A DNA stretch of 64,000 bases from IMG/VR virus record IMGVR_UViG_3300037466_003234; one strand, written 5' to 3'. Position 1 is the first letter of the stretch, and every line of letters begins with the position of its first letter. Positions 45,385 to 58,702 of this stretch are shown here, piece after piece. Both the position numbers and the translations under genes were made by a program. The notes under the pieces are model-generated. The model searched no databases. It saw only the letters and a list, made by a program, of their open reading frames with translations, and had not been told where the DNA came from. The DNA is from a virus (taxonomy: Duplodnaviria; Heunggongvirae; Uroviricota; Caudoviricetes).

Positions 45385-47835
45385 TTACTTAGAAGTCCTT
45401 CCGGCCTGCTGCTGCGTTACTGGTGTGGAGTATTGCTGCATAACCTTCTTGACGGAATCAAGATAGTTACCGTTACCACTCTTGGCGTCTTCGAGAGCCT
45501 TGAGCAACATTGCGTTCATCTCACGGATCTGATCGGTAAAAGCTGCAGCAGACTTTGCTGCCGCATCCATTCCGCCGCGCATTTCATTGAAGTTCTTAAG
45601 AACCGTGCCGGCATCGCCTGCCATAGCAGCGATTGTATTATCTTCCATACGGCCAGAAGATCCTTGGGTCTTTTTAGTAACGACAGCTTCACGATCGCGC
45701 TGAGTGTCGGCCTGGCCAGGAATATCTCCGATAGCGCCGCTCATGCGAGATTCTGCCGTTTGAACGTCGCCATATCCGCGCTCAACGTTTTGATAACTTC
45801 CGACCATGTAATAATCCTTCTGAACGTCGTCAGAGAACTCATGAAGGTTATCTTTAGTAATTTTCTTACCAGCCTTAGCTTGCGCTGCCTTTAGGCGATT
45901 GACTCTTTCGTCATAATCCTTAAAGCGGCTCATGGACTTTTGGTTAAGTCCAGAGATTTTGCCAACAAGTTCTTTTGGAGAGATTCCAGCGCTCTTTGCG
46001 GCACCCTGAACTAGGAAATTGTCTTCGTTAAGCTGATCTTCTGGGATCTGCATCAACGATTGCTTTTCGATGGTCGAAAGCTTGTTGAGATCAGGATCGC
46101 TCATGAAACCTGCAGCACGCATGACGCCGCGTGGACCTGTGGTTTCGGACGACATCTTTTGATACTCTTGGTAGGCGCCTCTAGCGGATTCGATGCCCTT
46201 TGAGGTATTTTCATTCATGAAACTACCAAACTTAGCTGCGATACGCTCGAAGTCGTCTTGATTGCTAGTTCCGCTCTTTGCGATTGCCTCTGCAGCAGCT
46301 TGCGTAAACTTACGATTTTCTTCAGCGAACTTGCTGTCATCAAGGCCAAGTTTCATACCTTCAGCTAAAAGCTTAATGGTAGCTTGCTTGGTAGATTCAC
46401 TTCCGCCGATACTACCGCTCAAGGTTCCGAGCACTTGGCCAGCGTTTGTGAGATCCATGCCACGTTGAAGCTGAAGGCCAAATCCAGAGTCGCGAGCCAT
46501 GCGAGTAGATCCGCCAGCACCTAAGATGTTGCCGGACATTTCCATAGCCATCTCTGGCGTAAATCCATTACCGATAGCTCCGCGCATGAAACCGTTTGAG
46601 CCATACATCTGATCGTTGTTAAATCCCAACGAGCGCTGGAACTGAAGGTTGCGCATGAAGTTCTGCTCATAGTCAGCAGACGCAGCCTTCTTATAAGGAT
46701 TCATGTTCTTTTCAGACTCAATACCGCCTTGATAGTCACCGGCAACTTGTTGCGCAACCATCGACTCGTACTGTTGCTTATAACGTCCGCCGATGAAAGG
46801 CAGCTGCGATAGCCCTAAAGCTCTTTCTCTAGGATCTGCTCTGAGCAATCCTGTGATAGCGCCGCCTGCGCCGCCCAATGCGCCAAAGATACCTGCACCA
46901 GCCGCAGTTCCAACGCCTGGGAAAAGGGCCGTTCCTAAGCCTGCGCCGATACCTGCGCCGGAGGCCATACCCGCACCGCCCCACTTGAGCATGTTTCCAG
47001 CTAGGCCCATTTTGTCAGCGGTCATACCGCTGTTCATGGCTTCTAGCGCTCTTGAAGCTGAACGCGCACGTTCTTGAGTCCAAAATGACTCAAACGCACT
47101 TCTACGACCATAGATGTTCTGAACATCTTGGCCCATAAAACCTTGAGTAGCGCTACCCATTGCGGCAGCGGTCTGAATAGGCATTCTTCCATATGCCCTG
47201 TAAGAATCGCCAGCCATACCTAGACCAACACCCAAAGTGCTGATAGCGCCGCCTGCGGCGCCAATCATGCCAGCTGGACCCATAGCTCTGAGGAAATTTC
47301 CTCCCTGGCCCATTAGTCCGCCCATGCCGCCGGTCTTGTATGCGTCTACTAAATTTCTAACGTCGAGATCGCCCTTTTGCTTCGTATTGAGCATTTGGTT
47401 TAGAACGGCATCGCGCTGCTTATAGCCTTCGCGTTGGCTATAGAGATTTGCCTCAACCCTTGCGATCTTCTCTTTAATTCTTAGTTCTTCTTCGGAACCT
47501 TTAACTGCCTCAGCCTGGAGCTTCTTTAGCTGATCGAGCTTACCCACACGTTCATTGATAAACTTTGCGAGCTTTTCCTGGCCTTGAGCTTCTCTCGTAA
47601 TTGAGGCTTCAAGTTCACGGCGAGCCTGATGGGAACTACGCTGAAAGGCGTCTGAGCCGGGCCTAGACATGGTCCCGCCAAAACCAAGATTGTCTAGGCG
47701 CTGGGCCGTCGCGCCCTGCATTCTAGCCATATCTGAAGGCTGATAGATCTCACGCAACTTTTTCTGCATGGATTCTACAGACTTATCAAAGTCAGACGTA
47801 TCAAATTTTGCTTTAAACTCGACTTCTTTTCTCAC
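45385..47835 (-). CDS. Tape measure protein (GTG start)
   Basis: 816 aa, helical Ala/Gly/Met-rich; begins EFKAKFDTSDFDK; immediately upstream of hub and spike. Confidence 0.8.
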   Translation of the reverse strand: MRKEVEFKAKFDTSDFDKSVESMQKKLREIYQPSDMARMQGATAQRLDNLGFGGTMSRPGSDAFQRSSHQARRELEASITREAQGQEKLAKFINERVGKLDQLKKLQAEAVKGSEEELRIKEKIARVEANLYSQREGYKQRDAVLNQMLNTKQKGDLDVRNLVDAYKTGGMGGLMGQGGNFLRAMGPAGMIGAAGGAISTLGVGLGMAGDSYRAYGRMPIQTAAAMGSATQGFMGQDVQNIYGRRSAFESFWTQERARSASRALEAMNSGMTADKMGLAGNMLKWGGAGMASGAGIGAGLGTALFPGVGTAAGAGIFGALGGAGGAITGLLRADPRERALGLSQLPFIGGRYKQQYESMVAQQVAGDYQGGIESEKNMNPYKKAASADYEQNFMRNLQFQRSLGFNNDQMYGSNGFMRGAIGNGFTPEMAMEMSGNILGAGGSTRMARDSGFGLQLQRGMDLTNAGQVLGTLSGSIGGSESTKQATIKLLAEGMKLGLDDSKFAEENRKFTQAAAEAIAKSGTSNQDDFERIAAKFGSFMNENTSKGIESARGAYQEYQKMSSETTGPRGVMRAAGFMSDPDLNKLSTIEKQSLMQIPEDQLNEDNFLVQGAAKSAGISPKELVGKISGLNQKSMSRFKDYDERVNRLKAAQAKAGKKITKDNLHEFSDDVQKDYYMVGSYQNVERGYGDVQTAESRMSGAIGDIPGQADTQRDREAVVTKKTQGSSGRMEDNTIAAMAGDAGTVLKNFNEMRGGMDAAAKSAAAFTDQIREMNAMLLKALEDAKSGNGNYLDSVKKVMQQYSTPVTQQQAGRTSK

Positions 47836-50119: not shown

Positions 50120-50252
50120 CTGTTCGCACGGAGTGACCAAACACCTTCGTTCGAACTGTGAGTCCGCAAACAAAAAGGGTAACACCTGCGAACTCAACAC
50201 GCTTTGCTACTGCGAAGATCTACCCGAACATCAAGTTCGTGAGCGTAACTAA
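50073..50252 (+). CDS. 59-aa Cys-rich lipoprotein (not in ORF track)
   Basis: MKSLLMLILTIGILSSCSHG (lipobox LSSC); AAGGAG RBS; four further Cys. Confidence 0.65.
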   Translation: MKSLLMLILTIGILSSCSHGVTKHLRSNCESANKKGNTCELNTLCYCEDLPEHQVRERN

Positions 50253-50812
50253 CACTTCAGGGCCTTAGCTACAGCGCTTTTGGTAAGACCTACCTCAAGG
50301 GCGATTTTAGAGTAGCTAAGGCCTTTTTGTTTCAACTCCTTAAGCTTATCCCTATCGCACTGGACTGGACGACCTAGTTTTACTCCCTTCTCGCGAGCTG
50401 TATCTACTCCAGCCTGCACACGCTCTCTAATAATGTCGCGCTCAAGCTGAGCCATCGCCGCAATAATGGAGTACATTGCTTTACCCATAGGCGTACCGGT
50501 ATCAATGTTTTCTTGATAACTAATGAAATTAACGCCAAGGCTATTGAACTCGTCAAGGGCATTCACAAGGAATTGGCTTGAGCGGGCAAAGCGGTCAAAG
50601 CGCCAAACCAAAACTACGTCGTGTTGGCGCTTACGGACAGCGTCTAGCATGGCGTCTAACTGCGGTCTTTTCGTTTTAGAGCCACTAATGCCTTGATCAT
50701 GGTAGATCGTATAGGTCCAACCACGAGCCTGCGCATAGGCCTCTAAATCCTTCAATTGAAGGTCAACAGATTGTTTCTTAGTGGATACGCGGACGTAAAT
50801 TGCTGCTCTCAT
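50249..50812 (-). CDS. Serine recombinase, resolvase/invertase type with C-terminal HTH
   Basis: AIYVRVST (catalytic Ser), DQGISG, VWRFDRFARS, ERDIIRERV..G...A..KG...GRP and an HTH; ATG 50812 fits the promoter geometry. Confidence 0.9.
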   Translation of the reverse strand: MRAAIYVRVSTKKQSVDLQLKDLEAYAQARGWTYTIYHDQGISGSKTKRPQLDAMLDAVRKRQHDVVLVWRFDRFARSSQFLVNALDEFNSLGVNFISYQENIDTGTPMGKAMYSIIAAMAQLERDIIRERVQAGVDTAREKGVKLGRPVQCDRDKLKELKQKGLSYSKIALEVGLTKSAVAKALKC

Positions 50813-50855: not shown

Positions 50856-51017
50856 TCAACCCCTCTTGGAGGTCTTATGCTTAGGCTTTTTAACGCCGTA
50901 CTTCTTGTAGGTCTTCCTGTTCTCACCCCTATTAGGGCGACAGAAATTACAGCGAAGGTCAAACCTACGCTCACGGTCGTCTACAGTATTGTTAGTGTTA
51001 GTTTTATCTTTTTTCAT
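50856..51017 (-). CDS. 53-aa basic protein with CxxC (not in ORF track)
   Basis: MKKDKTNTNNTVDDRERRFDLRCNFCRPNRGENRKTYKKYGVKKPKHKTSKRG*. Confidence 0.55.
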   Translation of the reverse strand: MKKDKTNTNNTVDDRERRFDLRCNFCRPNRGENRKTYKKYGVKKPKHKTSKRG

Positions 51018-51026
51018 AGAATAAAT

Positions 51027-51067
51027 AGGCAGGGGAGCCTACTCTAGTACCACTCCTCACCCTGCCT
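51027..51067 (-). terminator. Hairpin downstream of the tRNA-like RNA (possible terminator/processing stem)
   Basis: AGGCAGGG...CCCTGCCT 8-bp outer stem followed by ATTTATT on the minus strand. Confidence 0.4.
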
Positions 51068-51090
51068 CTCGTGCTAACAGCCGTTAAAAT

Positions 51091-51223
51091 TGGTGGAGTC
51101 GCAGAGGAGCTGCCCCTCTGGTTACCGCTACTGCAGGTGGGACTCGAACCCACGATCTCCGGCGCAAGGCCGGGTTTTAACCTACTAAACTACTGACTCT
51201 TCGCGGGCTTTCTACTCGACCCC
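51091..51223 (-). ncRNA. 133-nt nested double tRNA-mimic RNA (Ala-identity shell around a second tRNA core)
   Basis: GGGGUCG/CGACUCC acceptor (G3:U70) + A + encoded CCA; outer T-like arm CAGAGG-GGCAGCU-CCUCUG; inner D arm GUUU/AAAC, CCGGC-CUUGC-GCCGG arm, AGAUC linker and canonical T arm GUGGG-UUCGAGU-CCCAC. Confidence 0.75.
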
Positions 51224-51433
51224 ATTTATAGATTGCTTCTCAGCGTCAATCATCCTGCTTATATCAGAGACTATAAAAGCCCTTATTCTGGGCATTGGCT
51301 TGGCTATACCGCTAGCCCACCTGTCTACCGTGGTCCTATGCACTTCGCAACGATCCGCTATTTTATCCACGCCCAGACTGGATACGGCGTCCCTAACGAA
51401 TTGGGCGAATTCTTCATCGCTATAGACTTTCAT
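51212..51433 (-). CDS. XRE-like helix-turn-helix protein (73 aa)
   Basis: LGVDKIADRCEVHRTTVDRWASGIAKP HTH; ATG 51433 by ATGA coupling. Confidence 0.75.
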   Translation of the reverse strand: MKVYSDEEFAQFVRDAVSSLGVDKIADRCEVHRTTVDRWASGIAKPMPRIRAFIVSDISRMIDAEKQSINGVE

Positions 51434-51630
51434 GCTATACGCCAAACCTGATAACAGCGCTTGGTGTAGCAATCATTGGCTTCCAGATTTCTCCAAGGTG
51501 GAACGCCCAGAATAACGAATCCTGCGCGGTGGTAAGGGCTTTCCATCTTAACCACTCTCATAAACAGGAGTTCGAGCGGCAGTGTAAAAAGATTAGACAC
51601 TTCTTTCAAGGCAAGTTCTTTTAAAGACAT
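51430..51630 (-). CDS. Hypothetical 66-aa protein
   Basis: GAGG RBS before ATG 51630. Confidence 0.5.
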   Translation of the reverse strand: MSLKELALKEVSNLFTLPLELLFMRVVKMESPYHRAGFVILGVPPWRNLEANDCYTKRCYQVWRIA

Positions 51631-51637
51631 ATTAACC

Positions 51638-51976
51638 TCAAATCGTGGTGTTAAGATAGGCCTTGGCGATCTCACTACTGAGCTTTCCAGCTGCCGTAGA
51701 CGTGTCTGGTTGGCTCAGAATGCTTACTCCAACAGCCCTTGCTACCATATGGGCGGATACGCCCTCTTCGTCCTTCAGGCAGCGAAAATAACCGCCTCCT
51801 GGGCCGCGCTTAACGTCCACAAGGCCAGCGATGCGAAGCTGGCGCATGATCTGTTCCATGAAGTTTTCCGTCGTTCCGACTTCGCGAGCCAAGTCGGCAG
51901 ATCGAGCCGGCAAAGGCTTAGATCTGAGGGCGGACATGGTATTGATCGCGATCTCCAGCTTCTTGTTAATTTTCAT
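51638..51976 (-). CDS. Rrf2-family winged-helix transcriptional regulator
   Basis: ADLAREVGTTENFMEQIMRQLRIAGLVDVKRGPGGGY; no Fe-S Cys triad; upstream TTGAAT-17-TAGTCT promoter. Confidence 0.85.
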   Translation of the reverse strand: MKINKKLEIAINTMSALRSKPLPARSADLAREVGTTENFMEQIMRQLRIAGLVDVKRGPGGGYFRCLKDEEGVSAHMVARAVGVSILSQPDTSTAAGKLSSEIAKAYLNTTI

Positions 51977-53642: not shown

Positions 53643-54128
53643 TTACTTAAGGCCCCATTTTGAGGCGAGAGGTTTTCTGGTAGCTTTAGGAATGGACTTG
53701 TTCTCAAGATAGGCCTTGCCGTCCAAATGATCGATCTCGTGCTGGACGCAAACGGCATAAATACCCTGGAATACTCTGGACTGAGACTTTCCTTCTTCAT
53801 CTTCGTAATTAACCTGTACCCATTGAGCGCGGTCAGGAACGATAACGTAGTCGCCAGGAGCGGAAAGACAGCCTTCTCTCATGTTTGCTGGAGCGCTAGA
53901 TGACGAAGTAATCACTGGGTTAACGAAATTGAAACGCTTTCCGTCAGGGCCTTCCATGACGAACATGCGCTGACTCAGACCTACCTGATTGGCAGCTAGG
54001 CCCATACCGTGATGCTCGCTCATGGTATCCCACATAGCGTCGAGTAAGGTTTTAAGCTCTTCGCCAAAGACGGTGACCTCCTCGGTCTTCTCAAGCAAAT
54101 GTGGATGTGGGAACTTAAGGATTTCCAT
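53643..54128 (-). CDS. def: Peptide deformylase
   Basis: GMGLAANQVG, EGCLS and QHEIDHLDG. Confidence 0.95.
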   Translation of the reverse strand: MEILKFPHPHLLEKTEEVTVFGEELKTLLDAMWDTMSEHHGMGLAANQVGLSQRMFVMEGPDGKRFNFVNPVITSSSSAPANMREGCLSAPGDYVIVPDRAQWVQVNYEDEEGKSQSRVFQGIYAVCVQHEIDHLDGKAYLENKSIPKATRKPLASKWGLK

Positions 54129-54279
54129 CGATCATTTCTTCCGTGGTCTTAAAATGGATGCCGATTGATTCTGTAGATTCAACGACGGTCTTATAGGCTT
54201 TGTACCCCATAATAGCGAGCACTCCTACCCACACAGATGCGTAAAACAAGTCTGCAACAACGTTTCTTTCCCTAGCCAT
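54115..54279 (-). CDS. Small single-TM protein
   Basis: GGAG RBS; one hydrophobic helix. Confidence 0.55.
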   Translation of the reverse strand: MARERNVVADLFYASVWVGVLAIMGYKAYKTVVESTESIGIHFKTTEEMIDGNP

Positions 54280-54280
54280 A

Positions 54281-54622
54281 TCAAAATCTCCAGTTGAACT
54301 GGATATTGTACGAACTGCGCGTAACTTCATTTGTAATCCTGTCACAAACGCCAAAGTTCGGTAGGTTAAAATTTAGCCTCTTATCCTTGGCAGTCTTATA
54401 TGCAAACCCAGCCATTCCTAAGGCCGAGTATTCCTCTGTAGTTAATATCATTCTTGCTTTTTGATCTAAAAGCCTAACGCTATTATCTTCAGCTTTATCA
54501 ACCTGGGTTCTAAGCCCAATCTGGCGGGTTCCCGCATCCAATGCCTTATTGCAGGCATCGTTATAGTTGCCCTGAGTGCTTACGCAGATAGCAACGATTG
54601 CGGAACTAACCAGCCCAGCCAT
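54281..54622 (-). CDS. Hypothetical, possibly exported protein
   Basis: GGAG RBS before ATG 54622; hydrophobic N-terminus. Confidence 0.55.
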   Translation of the reverse strand: MAGLVSSAIVAICVSTQGNYNDACNKALDAGTRQIGLRTQVDKAEDNSVRLLDQKARMILTTEEYSALGMAGFAYKTAKDKRLNFNLPNFGVCDRITNEVTRSSYNIQFNWRF

Positions 54623-54624
54623 AA

Positions 54625-54831
54625 TTAATCTCCGTGAGTTTCGCTCCAATAGGCAGCGTCAAGCTCTTCATCGACGACTTTATTTTGCATTTCGGAATCC
54701 ATGATCTTATCCAGGGTTTCCCAGTAATGAGACTTGTTTTCCGATTCGGTGTTAATTAACTCTCCAAGGTTCCTCAGAGCCTCTTTCGATGTTAATTTAC
54801 CCTTCTGCCAATCCAAACACACGATGCACAT
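54625..54831 (-). CDS. Hypothetical 68-aa protein (MCIVC start)
   Basis: TAATG coupling. Confidence 0.65.
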   Translation of the reverse strand: MCIVCLDWQKGKLTSKEALRNLGELINTESENKSHYWETLDKIMDSEMQNKVVDEELDAAYWSETHGD

Positions 54832-55079
54832 TAATCCATACTCCCATTGGTCCAGTAAAACGGATCTAACGGTTGATCGTCACTAGACGCTTTCTTTTCT
54901 TTCTTCTCTGGAAAAGGAGGGCAGCCTTGATAATAATCAATCTTAGTTTGTGTTAAATCCTTAAATTTAAGGTTTGAGTCCTTACACTTCTTGCAGCGTC
55001 TACCATGAAGCGAATATTGGTTATAAACGTCATCTTGCTCTTTATGGCCACAATAAGTGCATTCGATCTCTACTTGCAT
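54831..55079 (-). CDS. Zn-ribbon protein
   Basis: CTYCG...CKKC. Confidence 0.7.
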   Translation of the reverse strand: MQVEIECTYCGHKEQDDVYNQYSLHGRRCKKCKDSNLKFKDLTQTKIDYYQGCPPFPEKKEKKASSDDQPLDPFYWTNGSMD

Positions 55080-55405
55080 TATTTCTTATCCAGTAAAATT
55101 TGCAGTGTTTGTCCAACCTTTTCAAGGAGTTGGTTAACAAGCAGTGCGTAAAGTTCATCTTCCATCATATGCTGCGGCATGTAATTAAGAAAATAACCCG
55201 GACAGACTGCTTCTGCAAGCTTTAAAAGACGCTCTCCGTCTTCTTCACATTCAAGGTCATACCAATCATGGGCGCAGCAAACGTAAGCCTGCGCGATCCT
55301 GTCTAAAGGATAGACAGCCATGTTGGCAGTGTAATGAGCTTCCATTTCCTGAAGCTCTTCCATCCACTGCCTATGTTCTTCGGGAATATCTCCGTGATAG
55401 TTCAT
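55079..55405 (-). CDS. Hypothetical 108-aa protein
   Basis: AAGGAATTAAC RBS; TAATG coupling. Confidence 0.65.
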   Translation of the reverse strand: MNYHGDIPEEHRQWMEELQEMEAHYTANMAVYPLDRIAQAYVCCAHDWYDLECEEDGERLLKLAEAVCPGYFLNYMPQHMMEDELYALLVNQLLEKVGQTLQILLDKK

Positions 55406-55414
55406 GTTAATTCC

Positions 55415-56578
55415 TTAGTGGAAATCGGTATTTGACTTATCGTCCAAGTAGTCTTCCGATACCCACTTGAGCGCTTTCTTATTCCCCTCATTGCTATAAT
55501 TATCACAAGCCTTGATCACGATTCCTTCGCGAACCTTTTGCGTAGGGCAATAAACGCTATTTCCCTTAGTTAAGGAATAAGCGTGTTCCTTATTGTAAGG
55601 ACCGCGATAGAGAACCGTTACGTACTCAAAACCACGCTCTTTGGCGAAAGCTTCGACTTCATCTGGCTTCAGCCAGGTTTGCTTGCCAGTGGAAGGATCG
55701 AAAACCTTCACGTCAAACAATACGAAGCGATGCTCCTTAAGGCCATATTCGTAGTTCTTTTGGATGCCTGGGCCAATGATCTCGCCATAGACGGTCTCAT
55801 TTTCCTTAAGCTTGCTAAATACGTCCATGGTCTTAAAAGTGAGACCATAGATATCTTCGCCATAAAAGCCGTTGTAGGCCGACTTGGAGGAGATATCGAC
55901 ATTGTTAGATCCGTAGACGTTCTCGTAGCCGCCCGCAAATCCTAAGAACTTCTTAATCTTCTTCCACAACGTGTTCGTTTGATAAGGAAGCTTTCCAGCA
56001 CGAGCGTTGGTACCATGGAGCTTCTCTTGGATGCAAACCTGCTCACCTTCTTGGAAAAGGTCAGGGAACCACTTAATGTTGTCGAGACCGTTGTACTTGT
56101 GGAACAATGGGTGCTCGGTCTTCTTATTGCGCTGCTTATCCTTGCCAATGGTTTGGGCAAACTTTGGCGCAGGTGGCTCGTACTTAACGATGTTAAGATG
56201 CTCTGCCAAGTCCGTCTCAAGGGTTGCGTACTCAAGATCAATTAACGACGTGAGATCTGCAGGGTTTGCGATCATGCCTTGGGAGGCAAGGCCGCGAATA
56301 CGGATCTGGCGAACACGCGACTTATTGAGCTTGATCTTAGGTGGAACCATGACGCCGTCTTCATTCTTCACCATTGGGAAGAGCAGAGCTTCCACTTCTG
56401 GAGGCAATACGGAGTCGATAGGGATATAAACTACGCAATCGCCGACTTGATAGCGGCCCTTTGGAACCACGACCTGGAAGCCGTAAACCCAAGCTACTTC
56501 TAGGCGCTCAGCGTTATTGTGCGGCGTAATGTTAACGATGCGAGTATATGGAACTTTGTAAGTTGAACCTTCAGACAT
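55415..56578 (-). CDS. ATP-dependent RNA ligase, Rnl2/DRB0094-like with N-terminal OB (tRNA-binding-like) domain
   Basis: EKLHGTN (motif I), YGEIIG, FVLFDV, VREGIVIK and K..S..YL; N-terminal HNNAERLE..GFQVVV...SQGM. Confidence 0.9.
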   Translation of the reverse strand: MSEGSTYKVPYTRIVNITPHNNAERLEVAWVYGFQVVVPKGRYQVGDCVVYIPIDSVLPPEVEALLFPMVKNEDGVMVPPKIKLNKSRVRQIRIRGLASQGMIANPADLTSLIDLEYATLETDLAEHLNIVKYEPPAPKFAQTIGKDKQRNKKTEHPLFHKYNGLDNIKWFPDLFQEGEQVCIQEKLHGTNARAGKLPYQTNTLWKKIKKFLGFAGGYENVYGSNNVDISSKSAYNGFYGEDIYGLTFKTMDVFSKLKENETVYGEIIGPGIQKNYEYGLKEHRFVLFDVKVFDPSTGKQTWLKPDEVEAFAKERGFEYVTVLYRGPYNKEHAYSLTKGNSVYCPTQKVREGIVIKACDNYSNEGNKKALKWVSEDYLDDKSNTDFH

Positions 56579-56588
56579 GGAAATCTCC

Positions 56589-56744
56589 TTAAAAGATCAC
56601 TTGAAAAATCAATTCACTGTTAATTCTTACGACATTGATCATCACAGATTCTTCTGTGCCTTCACATTCAACTCTGTCTTTCACAGTCTCGTCTTCTTCG
56701 ACCTTAGACATCAAAGTACGAAGTTCTTTTAAAGTTATATGCAT
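56589..56744 (-). CDS. Hypothetical 51-aa protein
   Basis: TAATG coupling with the PNKP gene. Confidence 0.45.
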   Translation of the reverse strand: MHITLKELRTLMSKVEEDETVKDRVECEGTEESVMINVVRINSELIFQVIF

Positions 56745-57628
56745 TAGAAATCTCCTTCTGCGCAGGCAAAGCAGGTGAATCCACGGCGGCGCCATAGATC
56801 GACCACTTGTTTTCTGTCATCAATAAAGAACAAAGGCTTAAAGCGAGTCAGGATCTCGAAATCAAGGATGATCTCCTTGGCAACGAAGTCTTGGCGATGG
56901 TCTCCACGGCAACGCATATAGAGATGGTTCGTAGGAAACTCATAGCGCTCAAGCCATTCACGTGTGCCTCGCTGATAGTCATCTGGGCGACCAGAAGCGA
57001 AGACGATTGGAAAGACTCCAGAGAATCGATCGATCAACACAGCTACAGGAACGTTTGGGGTATCTTCCGAAAGGTTAACGAAAAACGACTTCCAATCCTT
57101 CTTTTCGCCGGCAGGCTTGCGAACATGGTGAAGGCGGTGCTCGATATTGCAGAGCGTGCCGTCCAGATCACAAATGACAGCCAGTTCCTTAACACCTTCT
57201 GGGTAGACGAAGTTAATACGATCGGCTTCATCTGGCTCTGGGCGCTCATACTTACTGAAAAAGGTGTTCAAAGCCTGGTTAGCTGCGGACTTATCCTTAA
57301 TCGTTGGATGGTTTTCACGAGCCACCGCACGCTCAAAGCAGACCTTGCGAGGCTGATGGAGAACGGTAATAACGACTTCGTATCCTTTTGTTCTAGCAGC
57401 TTCGATGAAGAACTTGCGCTGATCCTTGCTGAAGTTCATGCGGTCCACGACCACAGGCTGACCTTGAGCTAGGGCATTTAGAAAGATACCTCTATGTTCC
57501 TTACCTTGAGTGTCTTGGTTGATGTAAACCGTATTTGCACCGTGGTCGCCATCTTCATGGATTAGCTTGTGGGCAAGGGTAGATTTACCAGAGCCAGGAG
57601 GACCAACTAAAATGTGAAGTAAACTCAT
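56744..57628 (-). CDS. pseT: Polynucleotide 5'-kinase/3'-phosphatase (T4 PseT-like)
   Basis: GPPGSGKST P-loop, VVVDRMN and RAVAR lid; HAD ICDLDGTL, SGRP, MRCRGD.R.D..K and FIDDR.QVV.LWR. Confidence 0.9.
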   Translation of the reverse strand: MSLLHILVGPPGSGKSTLAHKLIHEDGDHGANTVYINQDTQGKEHRGIFLNALAQGQPVVVDRMNFSKDQRKFFIEAARTKGYEVVITVLHQPRKVCFERAVARENHPTIKDKSAANQALNTFFSKYERPEPDEADRINFVYPEGVKELAVICDLDGTLCNIEHRLHHVRKPAGEKKDWKSFFVNLSEDTPNVPVAVLIDRFSGVFPIVFASGRPDDYQRGTREWLERYEFPTNHLYMRCRGDHRQDFVAKEIILDFEILTRFKPLFFIDDRKQVVDLWRRRGFTCFACAEGDF

Positions 57629-57634
57629 AATACG

Positions 57635-57663
57635 AAGATAACGAAAATAAGGAATTAGGTCAA
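57635..57663 (-). promoter_or_regulatory. Leaderless sigma70 promoter of PNKP
   Basis: TTGACC-17-TATCTT-6-ATG(57628); the spacer carries AAATAAGGAATTAGG on the opposite strand. Confidence 0.75.
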
Positions 57664-57670
57664 CACTATT

Positions 57671-58702
57671 TTAGACAATATAGAGCCAAGCCATGTCCAT
57701 AACGATATCTTTATAGATTTCACACACAAAATCGTCAGCCCAAGCGCGATTAGGCTCTTCTCTAAGTGTTGATTTTTCCTGAGCAATATAAAGCTCCTGA
57801 AGACCTTGCTCAATCATTTCAAAGACTTGTTCGGGAGGAAGCTGTCCAGTCTTGATTTGTAGCAAAAGTTCCCTATCTGGTCTTGGGAATGTGATTTGCC
57901 CAGTCTCAAGAAGTTCTTTAGCCTCGTTATTCACTCTGACAGCATGGGAAAGGGCTTTCCAATCCACTCCGCCTGCCAAATGGGCCTTGTGGGCGCGTTG
58001 TCCGTATCCGTCTAGCATTTTACCCACAATCTCACGAGCATACTTAACGGTAGCGTGAAATGGGATATTGCGTCCGTTAACGCTCAAATGCGGGGCGTCC
58101 ATCTCTCCTTTTGGACCCTTAAGCATGACGATCTCAACTAAAGGAGTTTTCTCAAGAGAAATTAGCTCGGAACACTCTTTTACCAAATCTTCTATGCCTT
58201 GAGCGTGGTGAAGCAACTTTGTTTGAGGATGAATAACATAAAAAATATCAAGCTTATGTGCCACTCGCTTCAGGGCGTCCATTCTAGAGCCCTTAATGCC
58301 ATACTTAGCAGCTTGCTGGCGGGCGTACCCAACGAACGCATTGACGTTCTTATTCAAAAGTTCAAACCTATTCTCGTAAATGCGATCCATGATCCACATA
58401 AGGCATGGATCTTGGAAAGTGTACATGTCACGAGGGGCGAAAAGAACGTCTAAAGCCACCGTCTGGCCTTCCACCAATAGATCCAGATAACGATCGAGAC
58501 TGAAGAACTCCATATCTACGTCGTCTTTATTGTTTCTTTCACACTCTCTCTTAGGCCTAGAGGTAGCAATTGTTCCCTTATAAGTATGGAGAATGATTTC
58601 ACGATCCGTAGGCAAATAGATGCCCTTCAGATCCAGGTCTGAATTGGGCGTATCGGTGCCGTAAAGGTGCGATCCAAACTTAAGCTCGAATATTTTTCGC
58701 AT
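57671..58702 (-). CDS. Predicted nucleotidyltransferase (Pol beta superfamily, T4 NrdC.11/YcgL-like)
   Basis: FGSHLYGTDTPNSDLDLKGIY (GS-x-D-x-D), GQTVALD and DWKALSHAVR. Confidence 0.8.
   Translation of the reverse strand: MRKIFELKFGSHLYGTDTPNSDLDLKGIYLPTDREIILHTYKGTIATSRPKRECERNNKDDVDMEFFSLDRYLDLLVEGQTVALDVLFAPRDMYTFQDPCLMWIMDRIYENRFELLNKNVNAFVGYARQQAAKYGIKGSRMDALKRVAHKLDIFYVIHPQTKLLHHAQGIEDLVKECSELISLEKTPLVEIVMLKGPKGEMDAPHLSVNGRNIPFHATVKYAREIVGKMLDGYGQRAHKAHLAGGVDWKALSHAVRVNNEAKELLETGQITFPRPDRELLLQIKTGQLPPEQVFEMIEQGLQELYIAQEKSTLREEPNRAWADDFVCEIYKDIVMDMAWLYIV

Follow-up and report, generated by a model that had tools for sequence, protein, structure and literature searches.

A small HTH gene of a tailed phage ends inside a tag-less mini-tmRNA, probably by recent and incidental read-through

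Results

The window, i.e. the whole 64-kb stretch of DNA analysed here, belongs to an uncultured soil phage with a genome of about 170 kb, whose nearest cultured relative found is Myxococcus phage Mx1 with 31.5% identity in one structural-region protein. The locus comprises a gene for an Rrf2-family regulator, an orphan gene, a gene for a small helix-turn-helix (HTH) protein, the gene of a tRNA-like RNA into which the HTH frame runs, a GC-rich hairpin and a serine resolvase gene (Table 1). The start codon of the HTH gene (ATG) shares bases with the stop codon (TGA) of the 66-aa orphan gene, and the three protein genes upstream of the RNA are likely an operon. No terminator-like site was found between the HTH gene and the RNA.

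Table 1. Features at the HTH gene/RNA junction of the window phage (positions in the window; L042, syntenic 177-kb phage; X5, soil contig)
Feature	Position	Strand	Remarks
Tag-less mini-tmRNA, 133 nt, tRNA-like domain only	51091..51223	-	alanine identity, encoded CCA
Acceptor stem, 5' strand	51217..51223	-	G1 at 51223; holds G3 of G3.U70
Unpaired 9-nt D-loop equivalent, AGUAGAAAG	51208..51216	-	contains the UAG serving as HTH stop
Outer T arm, 6-bp stem and 7-nt loop GGCAGCU, preceded by AAC	51102..51120	-	as in one class of phage and permuted tmRNAs
Acceptor stem, 3' strand, with discriminator A and CCA	51091..51101	-	discriminator A and CCA, 51094-51091
Degenerate tRNA body (D, anticodon and T arms)	51134..51195	-	Rfam tRNA 39.6 bits; ARAGORN none
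Small HTH protein gene, 73 aa	51212..51433	-	accessory; close homologues only in the window phage and its ~95%-identical relatives
CAA codon (Gln67)	51233..51235	-	-12..-10 relative to G1; TAA stop here in two other lineages
Read-through tail QSINGVE and stop	51212..51235	-	final 12 nt are RNA nt 1-12; outside the conserved HTH core
AT-rich 11-nt 5' leader	51224..51234	-	identical in X5, similar in L042; CAATCT in the window, TAATCT in both others
66-aa orphan gene	51430..51630	-	in X5 its C-terminal YQVWR abuts the RNA leader
Rrf2-family regulator gene	51638..51976	-	upstream anchor of a variable cassette; precedes the RNA in L042 too
GC-rich hairpin 3' of the RNA	51027..51067	-	terminator-like in the window; kept in L042 with compensatory changes
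Serine resolvase gene	50249..50812	-	downstream of the RNA; absent at this place in L042

The HTH gene reads from 51433 to 51212 on the minus strand and ends with the codons AAT GGG GTC GAG TAG. Position 51223, G1 of the RNA, is the first base of the GGG codon; GGG GTC GAG TAG therefore corresponds to nt 1-12 of the RNA and the stop codon to nt 10-12. The sequence-only reading from which this work started had placed the stop inside the RNA in precisely this register, and its coordinates were exact. By itself, the coincidence of G1 with the first base of a codon is a 1-in-3 event. The non-overlapping gene that precedes the RNA in a related phage (L042, see below) uses the same frame relative to G1, so that the register is also inherited.

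Judged by its sequence, the 73-aa protein is a small HTH protein, as proposed previously: it gave a weak match to Pfam HTH_23 (E 0.004, below the cut-off) and 61 phmmer relatives. In the alignment of homologues the family shares the core A..RW.G..P with invariant A26, R38, W39 and P46. Aligned with 15 homologues, the window protein reaches further at its C-terminus than any of them, and conservation does not extend to the overlapped tail. BLAST against cultured phages returned no match for HTH. Each of the four homologues that could be traced in its genomic context is directly followed by a protein gene, and no RNA of the present type matched beside any of them. One of them, P0014 (L343:1501-1695), is located between PagL and dUTPase genes in a phage of similar gene layout; the HTH family thus occupies different places in such phage genomes. 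Neither a functional nor a genomic tie of the HTH protein to this RNA or to ribosome rescue was found, its homologues being unlinked and one phage with the RNA (G003) giving no HTH match.

The RNA is predicted to close with an acceptor stem of 7 bp (51223-51217 with 51101-51095), which includes G1-C72, a G2-C pair and the wobble pair G3.U70 and continues into A73 and an encoded CCA end. Folded alone, the RNA yielded pair probabilities of 0.93-0.99 for its stems; in the context of the precursor those of the acceptor stem were 0.6-0.7. A precursor fold that broke the acceptor stem was an artefact of cutting the downstream hairpin and disappeared when the hairpin was kept whole. Seven other phage mini-tmRNAs, with the window RNA excluded, served to build a covariance model. 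Its sole match in the 64 kb of the window was this RNA (42.2 bits; E about 2e-7 by a rough calibration), and it located a single copy in each of two further phages, namely G002, which is about 95% identical to the window phage, and G003, the complete record of the 177-kb phage. Across ten sequences, 98% of the acceptor and T-stem cells were paired, two-sided changes occurred in 6 of 13 pairs and G3.U was present in all ten; the set had been picked by a pattern fixing part of the 3' end, so that the invariant columns are partly built in, and the two-sided changes are not.

When viral contigs were searched with the 3'-end pattern, the same arm appeared, among the matches listed, in three kinds of RNA, namely permuted tmRNAs called by ARAGORN, full tmRNAs passing Rfam RF00023 (L238, L308) and at least seven distinct tag-less RNAs of 73-89 nt. 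The GUAGA D loop, the AAC linker and the GGCAGCN T loop are common to the window RNA and the two Rfam-positive tmRNAs, and the GUAGA motif occurs also in mini- and full tmRNAs without any overlap. Within its 133 nt, the window RNA contains neither a tag-like reading frame nor a pseudoknot domain, and it was negative with both ARAGORN and RF00023. By its structure, it is a real RNA of the class of tag-less mini-tmRNAs, one more phage mini-tmRNA that had gone unannotated.

Other assignments were considered and rejected. A full-length tmRNA (RF00023) would require an mRNA-like domain with resume codon and tag, which is missing here. For a bacterial Y RNA, the YrlA model gave 18.5 bits where the cut-off is 69, and G002 yielded no TROVE (Ro60) match. 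The layout of T4 rnaC and rnaD looks unrelated.

For the P2 helix leaving the tRNA-like domain, a candidate of 4 bp exists in which C-G is replaced by U.G in G002; its pair probability is 0.01, and L042 folds a longer stem. By energy alone the P2 helix and the nested fold are not favoured, the nested model reaching -39.4 vs -48.4 kcal/mol. BLAST against cultured phages matched the window RNA only at its inner tRNA T arm and left another mini-tmRNA unmatched; a pattern scan of GTDB returned no homologue; the matches listed from a metagenome pattern scan were mostly due to chance, the sole gain being a second copy of the L042 RNA (L183); and all six matches of a 5'-end pattern scan were chance matches.

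In place of an mRNA-like domain, the RNA holds a tRNA body with a 5-nt anticodon loop and 3 bp of acceptor. It is not a canonical tRNA, since it lacks a 7-bp acceptor and a 7-nt anticodon loop with U33 and purine 37 and was not called by ARAGORN. This body varies between close relatives: the G002 RNA differs from that of the window at 12 positions, mostly in the tRNA body, where the D-loop GG is lost and a T-loop base gained, with a compensatory change in the inner T stem. In L042 the body is absent and an unrelated stem stands in its place. The closest sequence is the phage's own tRNA-Arg(CCG) (L019:1249-1324), with a score of 50 for both alleles and of 46-49 for the best foreign ones among 46 tRNAs. 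The body may thus have been captured from the phage's own tRNA cluster, although the margin is small. A tRNA body replacing the mRNA-like domain is possibly a new RNA variant; no description of one was found. The more lasting point is this RNA itself, with an interior that is exchangeable around a fixed shell.

Homologous loci were compared from the side of the RNA. The subtype is represented by at least three lineages among the matches listed, and in all three its shell occupies one syntenic place after the Rrf2 gene. What precedes it varies: L042 has a 95-aa gene there, X5 has the 66-aa gene, and in the window the 66-aa gene is followed by the HTH gene. The phage L042/G003 is syntenic (177 kb; Rrf2, RNA, hairpin, PagL-like gene), and its putative tape-measure protein is 47% identical to that of the window phage. 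Here the shell follows an unrelated 95-aa ORF with a TAA stop 9 nt before G1, and the complete G003 record gave no HTH match. The junction reads AAG TAA TCT TTT ATT GGG GTC GAG TAG in L042 and AAG CAA TCT ATA AAT GGG GTC GAG TAG in the window.

The third lineage is known from a contig of a soil run (X5), which is 100% identical to the window over 51084-51234, including the RNA, and then diverges. Its junction, TAG TAG TAA TCT ATA AAT GGG, contains three stops in frame, at distances of 15, 12 and 9 nt from G1. The flank translates to YQVWRRV followed by three stops and matches the C-terminus of the 66-aa gene (YQVWRIA* in the window); hence, the 66-aa gene abuts the RNA there, with no HTH gene between them and a stop 15 nt before G1. 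This evidence comes from a single 191-nt contig of depth 5, in which 30 flank letters were compared and one other frame is open across them. Homologous loci without the overlap, which the sequence-only reading had itself named as refuting its proposal, were thus observed in both lineages.

The overlap is kept in G002 and apparently, where letters could partly be compared, in X2 and X4, with no restoring stop seen. In G002 it lies inside a 370-bp block that covers the whole HTH gene and shows zero differences (0 in the 210 nt of HTH), and outside the block the other neighbouring genes differ by 1.4-11% and Rrf2 by 46%. This distribution of differences points to a recent exchange rather than to long selection, and because the block is identical the overlap in the window phage and in G002 was counted as one event. 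Upstream ORFs of other mini-tmRNAs stop before G1, at a distance of 1 nt (L223), 3 nt (L294), 5 nt (L240/L301) or 10 nt (mycobacteriophage DS6A); mechanical ORFs crossing the RNAs of L257, L294 and L295 were left out of this comparison. A 72-aa ORF of L240 with a TTG start that ends at nt 12 of the RNA was rejected, because in L301, the sister locus, its frame stays open across the RNA; the 44-aa ATG ORF common to both loci accounts for the 5 nt given above.

Several further observations were made in the neighbourhood. Within the Rrf2 gene, 46% of the columns differ from G002 between flanks that are about 97% identical, i.e. an allele swap, and the same stretch is replaced in X2. The hexamer TCTATA is found at both ends of the HTH gene, which is only suggestive, since the X5 sequence does not correspond to a clean deletion from one copy to the other. 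Both the window hairpin and its counterpart (L042:3873-3912) are preceded by TAGCAC; because the L042 copy has no U tract, termination may not be the hairpin's only role. Shortly after the mini-tmRNA, both phages have a small and very basic ORF that contains a CxxC motif and gave no Pfam match (50856-51017; L042:4111-4266). Co-oriented genes upstream of the RNA, at 53643-58702, encode a peptide deformylase, an RNA ligase, a PNKP and an RlaP-type nucleotidyltransferase.

Discussion

We consider it probable that the overlap is an incidental and recent read-through into a conserved phage mini-tmRNA. The HTH gene would be a recent addition, placed between the 66-aa gene and the leader of the RNA, and would have lost, or never had, a stop at the junction, which would have left it with a tail of seven residues. 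With CAA instead of TAA, the frame continues until it reaches the UAG of the D-loop motif; as this UAG at nt 10-12 is part of GUAGA, any in-frame read-through would stop there. A recent accident can still be under selection.

In tmRNAs, the 5' ends are made by RNase P, G3.U provides the alanine identity and the D loop contacts SmpB (PMC3985003). For an RNA with a tmRNA-type tRNA-like domain, a cut before G1 would leave a stop-less HTH message if both are co-transcribed. The operon transcript would be cut there by the host RNase P, and the processed message, non-stop after Asn70, would need rescue; its product would be three residues short and could be tagged. Uncut messages would give the full-length HTH protein, and the net effect would be a lower HTH yield that is tolerated, a partial loss rather than an either-or decision. 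The earlier idea that maturation creates a non-stop HTH mRNA thus remains plausible as a by-product, given a stop downstream of the processing site and tmRNA-type features, and provided that gene and RNA are co-transcribed. The accompanying claim that RNA processing and full-length synthesis are mutually exclusive was too strong. Under coupled translation, the stop would be transcribed while the 3' strand of the acceptor is still about 110 nt away, and since the stem cannot close until that strand is made, full-length protein is possible from an uncut message.

The same geometry had been interpreted as an evolved switch, in which RNase P maturation removes the HTH stop and the truncated regulator is tagged by tmRNA and degraded, linking the regulator to RNA processing or to trans-translation status. 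Because the mini-tmRNA may block tagging, the amount of HTH protein could, like that of ArfA, serve as a readout of rescue capacity. The exact geometry, the lack of a terminator-like site between gene and RNA and the same logic proposed for Carsonella smpB-ssrA and selB-selC speak for it, and the truncated protein would keep its whole core, as an ArfA-like sensor requires. We nevertheless regard such a switch as quite unlikely, because L042/G003 and X5, the two other lineages with this RNA, lack the overlap, the four traced homologues stand before protein genes instead of such an RNA, the published cases pair a protein with its own RNA partner and no such link is seen for HTH, and the stop derives from a motif that the RNA keeps regardless. 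Less likely again is a trans-translation sensor arising from a single recent stop-loss: maturation of the decoy would produce the non-stop HTH message, host tmRNA would destroy the product, and near-complete HTH would accumulate only once the decoy had titrated SmpB, in an ArfA-like circuit.

Incidental read-through would be of little consequence if the RNA were transcribed from its own promoter inside the upstream gene, with TAATCT at -12..-7 as -10 element and a start at or next to G1; the T-to-C change in the window would then weaken this element and remove the stop together. The sequence AG-[T/C]AATCT recurs in three lineages behind three different upstream genes, 6 nt before G1, which is the usual -10 spacing. 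A consensus scan found no promoter there, however, and its 1 site in the region compares with 1.5 expected by chance; no shared -35 element is evident, the hexamer is explained as stop codon plus leader, other mini-tmRNAs have no such hexamer at that distance and tmRNA 5' ends are normally processed. We consider an own promoter improbable. Least likely, and very improbable, is that the RNA is a decaying or non-tmRNA element, such as a tRNA remnant or a Y-RNA-like RNA, that escapes RNase P and leaves no non-stop message. The missing score with the Rfam tmRNA model, an outer T loop without the usual UUC, an inner tRNA body without D-loop GG and with an extra T-loop base in G002, and the weak YrlA match would fit such an element. 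Against this, the outer shell is near-invariant between phages whose putative tape-measure proteins have diverged to the degree given above, its T loop is that of real tmRNAs, the YrlA score is far below cut-off with Ro60 not found in G002, and the inner T-stem change is compensatory.

Incidental read-through can be compared with several known systems. In Candidatus Carsonella ruddii, the ORF upstream of ssrA, smpB, ends inside the 5' end of the tmRNA gene and a non-stop mRNA is expected (Mao et al. 2009; Hudson, Lau and Williams 2014, PMC4131195); this overlap is present in only half of the strains and the C-terminal extensions look random (PMC4131195). The window shares with it a stop inside the 5' end of a tmRNA-type gene. 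In Carsonella, however, the protein is the RNA's own partner, giving a feedback logic, whereas the HTH protein is accessory and the phage RNA has no tag frame. For selB-selC of Proteobacteria and Nitrospirae, the stop lies inside or beyond the downstream tRNA and processing has been proposed to repress the full-length protein (Mukai 2021, PMC8124441); close relatives have the stop in front of the tRNA (PMC8124441). That overlap is widely conserved and joins cognate partners, whereas the present one is confined to one recent lineage.

A stop-less message made by RNA processing is also a feature of arfA, whose mRNA is cut by RNase III. ArfA is made from the processed, stop-less mRNA and repressed by trans-translation (PMC10107115). 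It is a conserved rescue factor; in contrast, the HTH protein is not a rescue factor and its layout is not conserved. Both the overlap layout (Carsonella smpB-ssrA, selB-selC) and the class of the RNA (DS6A) are already published, and a literature search for overlaps of this type in phages found nothing specific.

The RNA itself is best compared with the 'TLD only' (CDS-less) tmRNA of mycobacteriophage DS6A, which was proposed to inhibit host tmRNA by titrating SmpB (PMC4131195, PMC11915505). Both are phage-encoded and have an alanine-identity acceptor, a stemless D loop, a T arm and no tag frame. The DS6A RNA measures about 80 nt; its T loop is of the standard kind (UUCGAUU), its hairpin is simple, and the upstream gene, gp33, ends 10 nt ahead of G1. 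The window RNA differs in its 133 nt, 6-bp T stem, GGCAGCU loop and degenerate tRNA body, and model R1 gave no score on the DS6A mini-tmRNA. By analogy, its most likely role, which we favour by a little, would be that of an alanine-chargeable, SmpB-binding competitor of host tmRNA. No smpB was found in G002 or G003.

Under incidental read-through, the locus offers a clean natural case of how such overlaps may originate: an accessory gene lands before a tRNA-like gene without a stop of its own and is caught by the D-loop UAG. It also advises caution, in that overlaps with a stop inside a tRNA need a check of homologues before regulation is inferred. The three junction states (CAA with overlap, TAA without overlap, no HTH gene) form a test set for RNase P-made non-stop messages.

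Other RNAs encountered

Phage tRNA-like RNAs of 117-118 nt with G3.U70, CCA, two T arms and an extra hairpin were met at L005:435-551, L006:5283-5399 and L017:5982-6099; they were negative with ARAGORN and Rfam. Other alanine-identity RNAs, of 130-139 nt, are located at L012:3618-3756 and L076:2501-2630. In layout the L012 RNA resembles that of the window, having a long stem and an inner T arm in addition to a tmRNA-type shell, but its T loop is standard.

No mini-tmRNA of the window type was found in Mx1. This phage encodes a full-length tmRNA (L362:1501-1877; 46646-47023; Rfam 117.7 bits) with the ARAGORN tag VNTNVFGSQMMAAA. The record leaves this tmRNA unannotated and has a short CDS, named 'Hef-like endonuclease', covering its 3' part. 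Finally, one viral contig (L295) carries a 73-nt mini-tmRNA 2 kb from a ROOL RNA (275-798 and 2790-2862).
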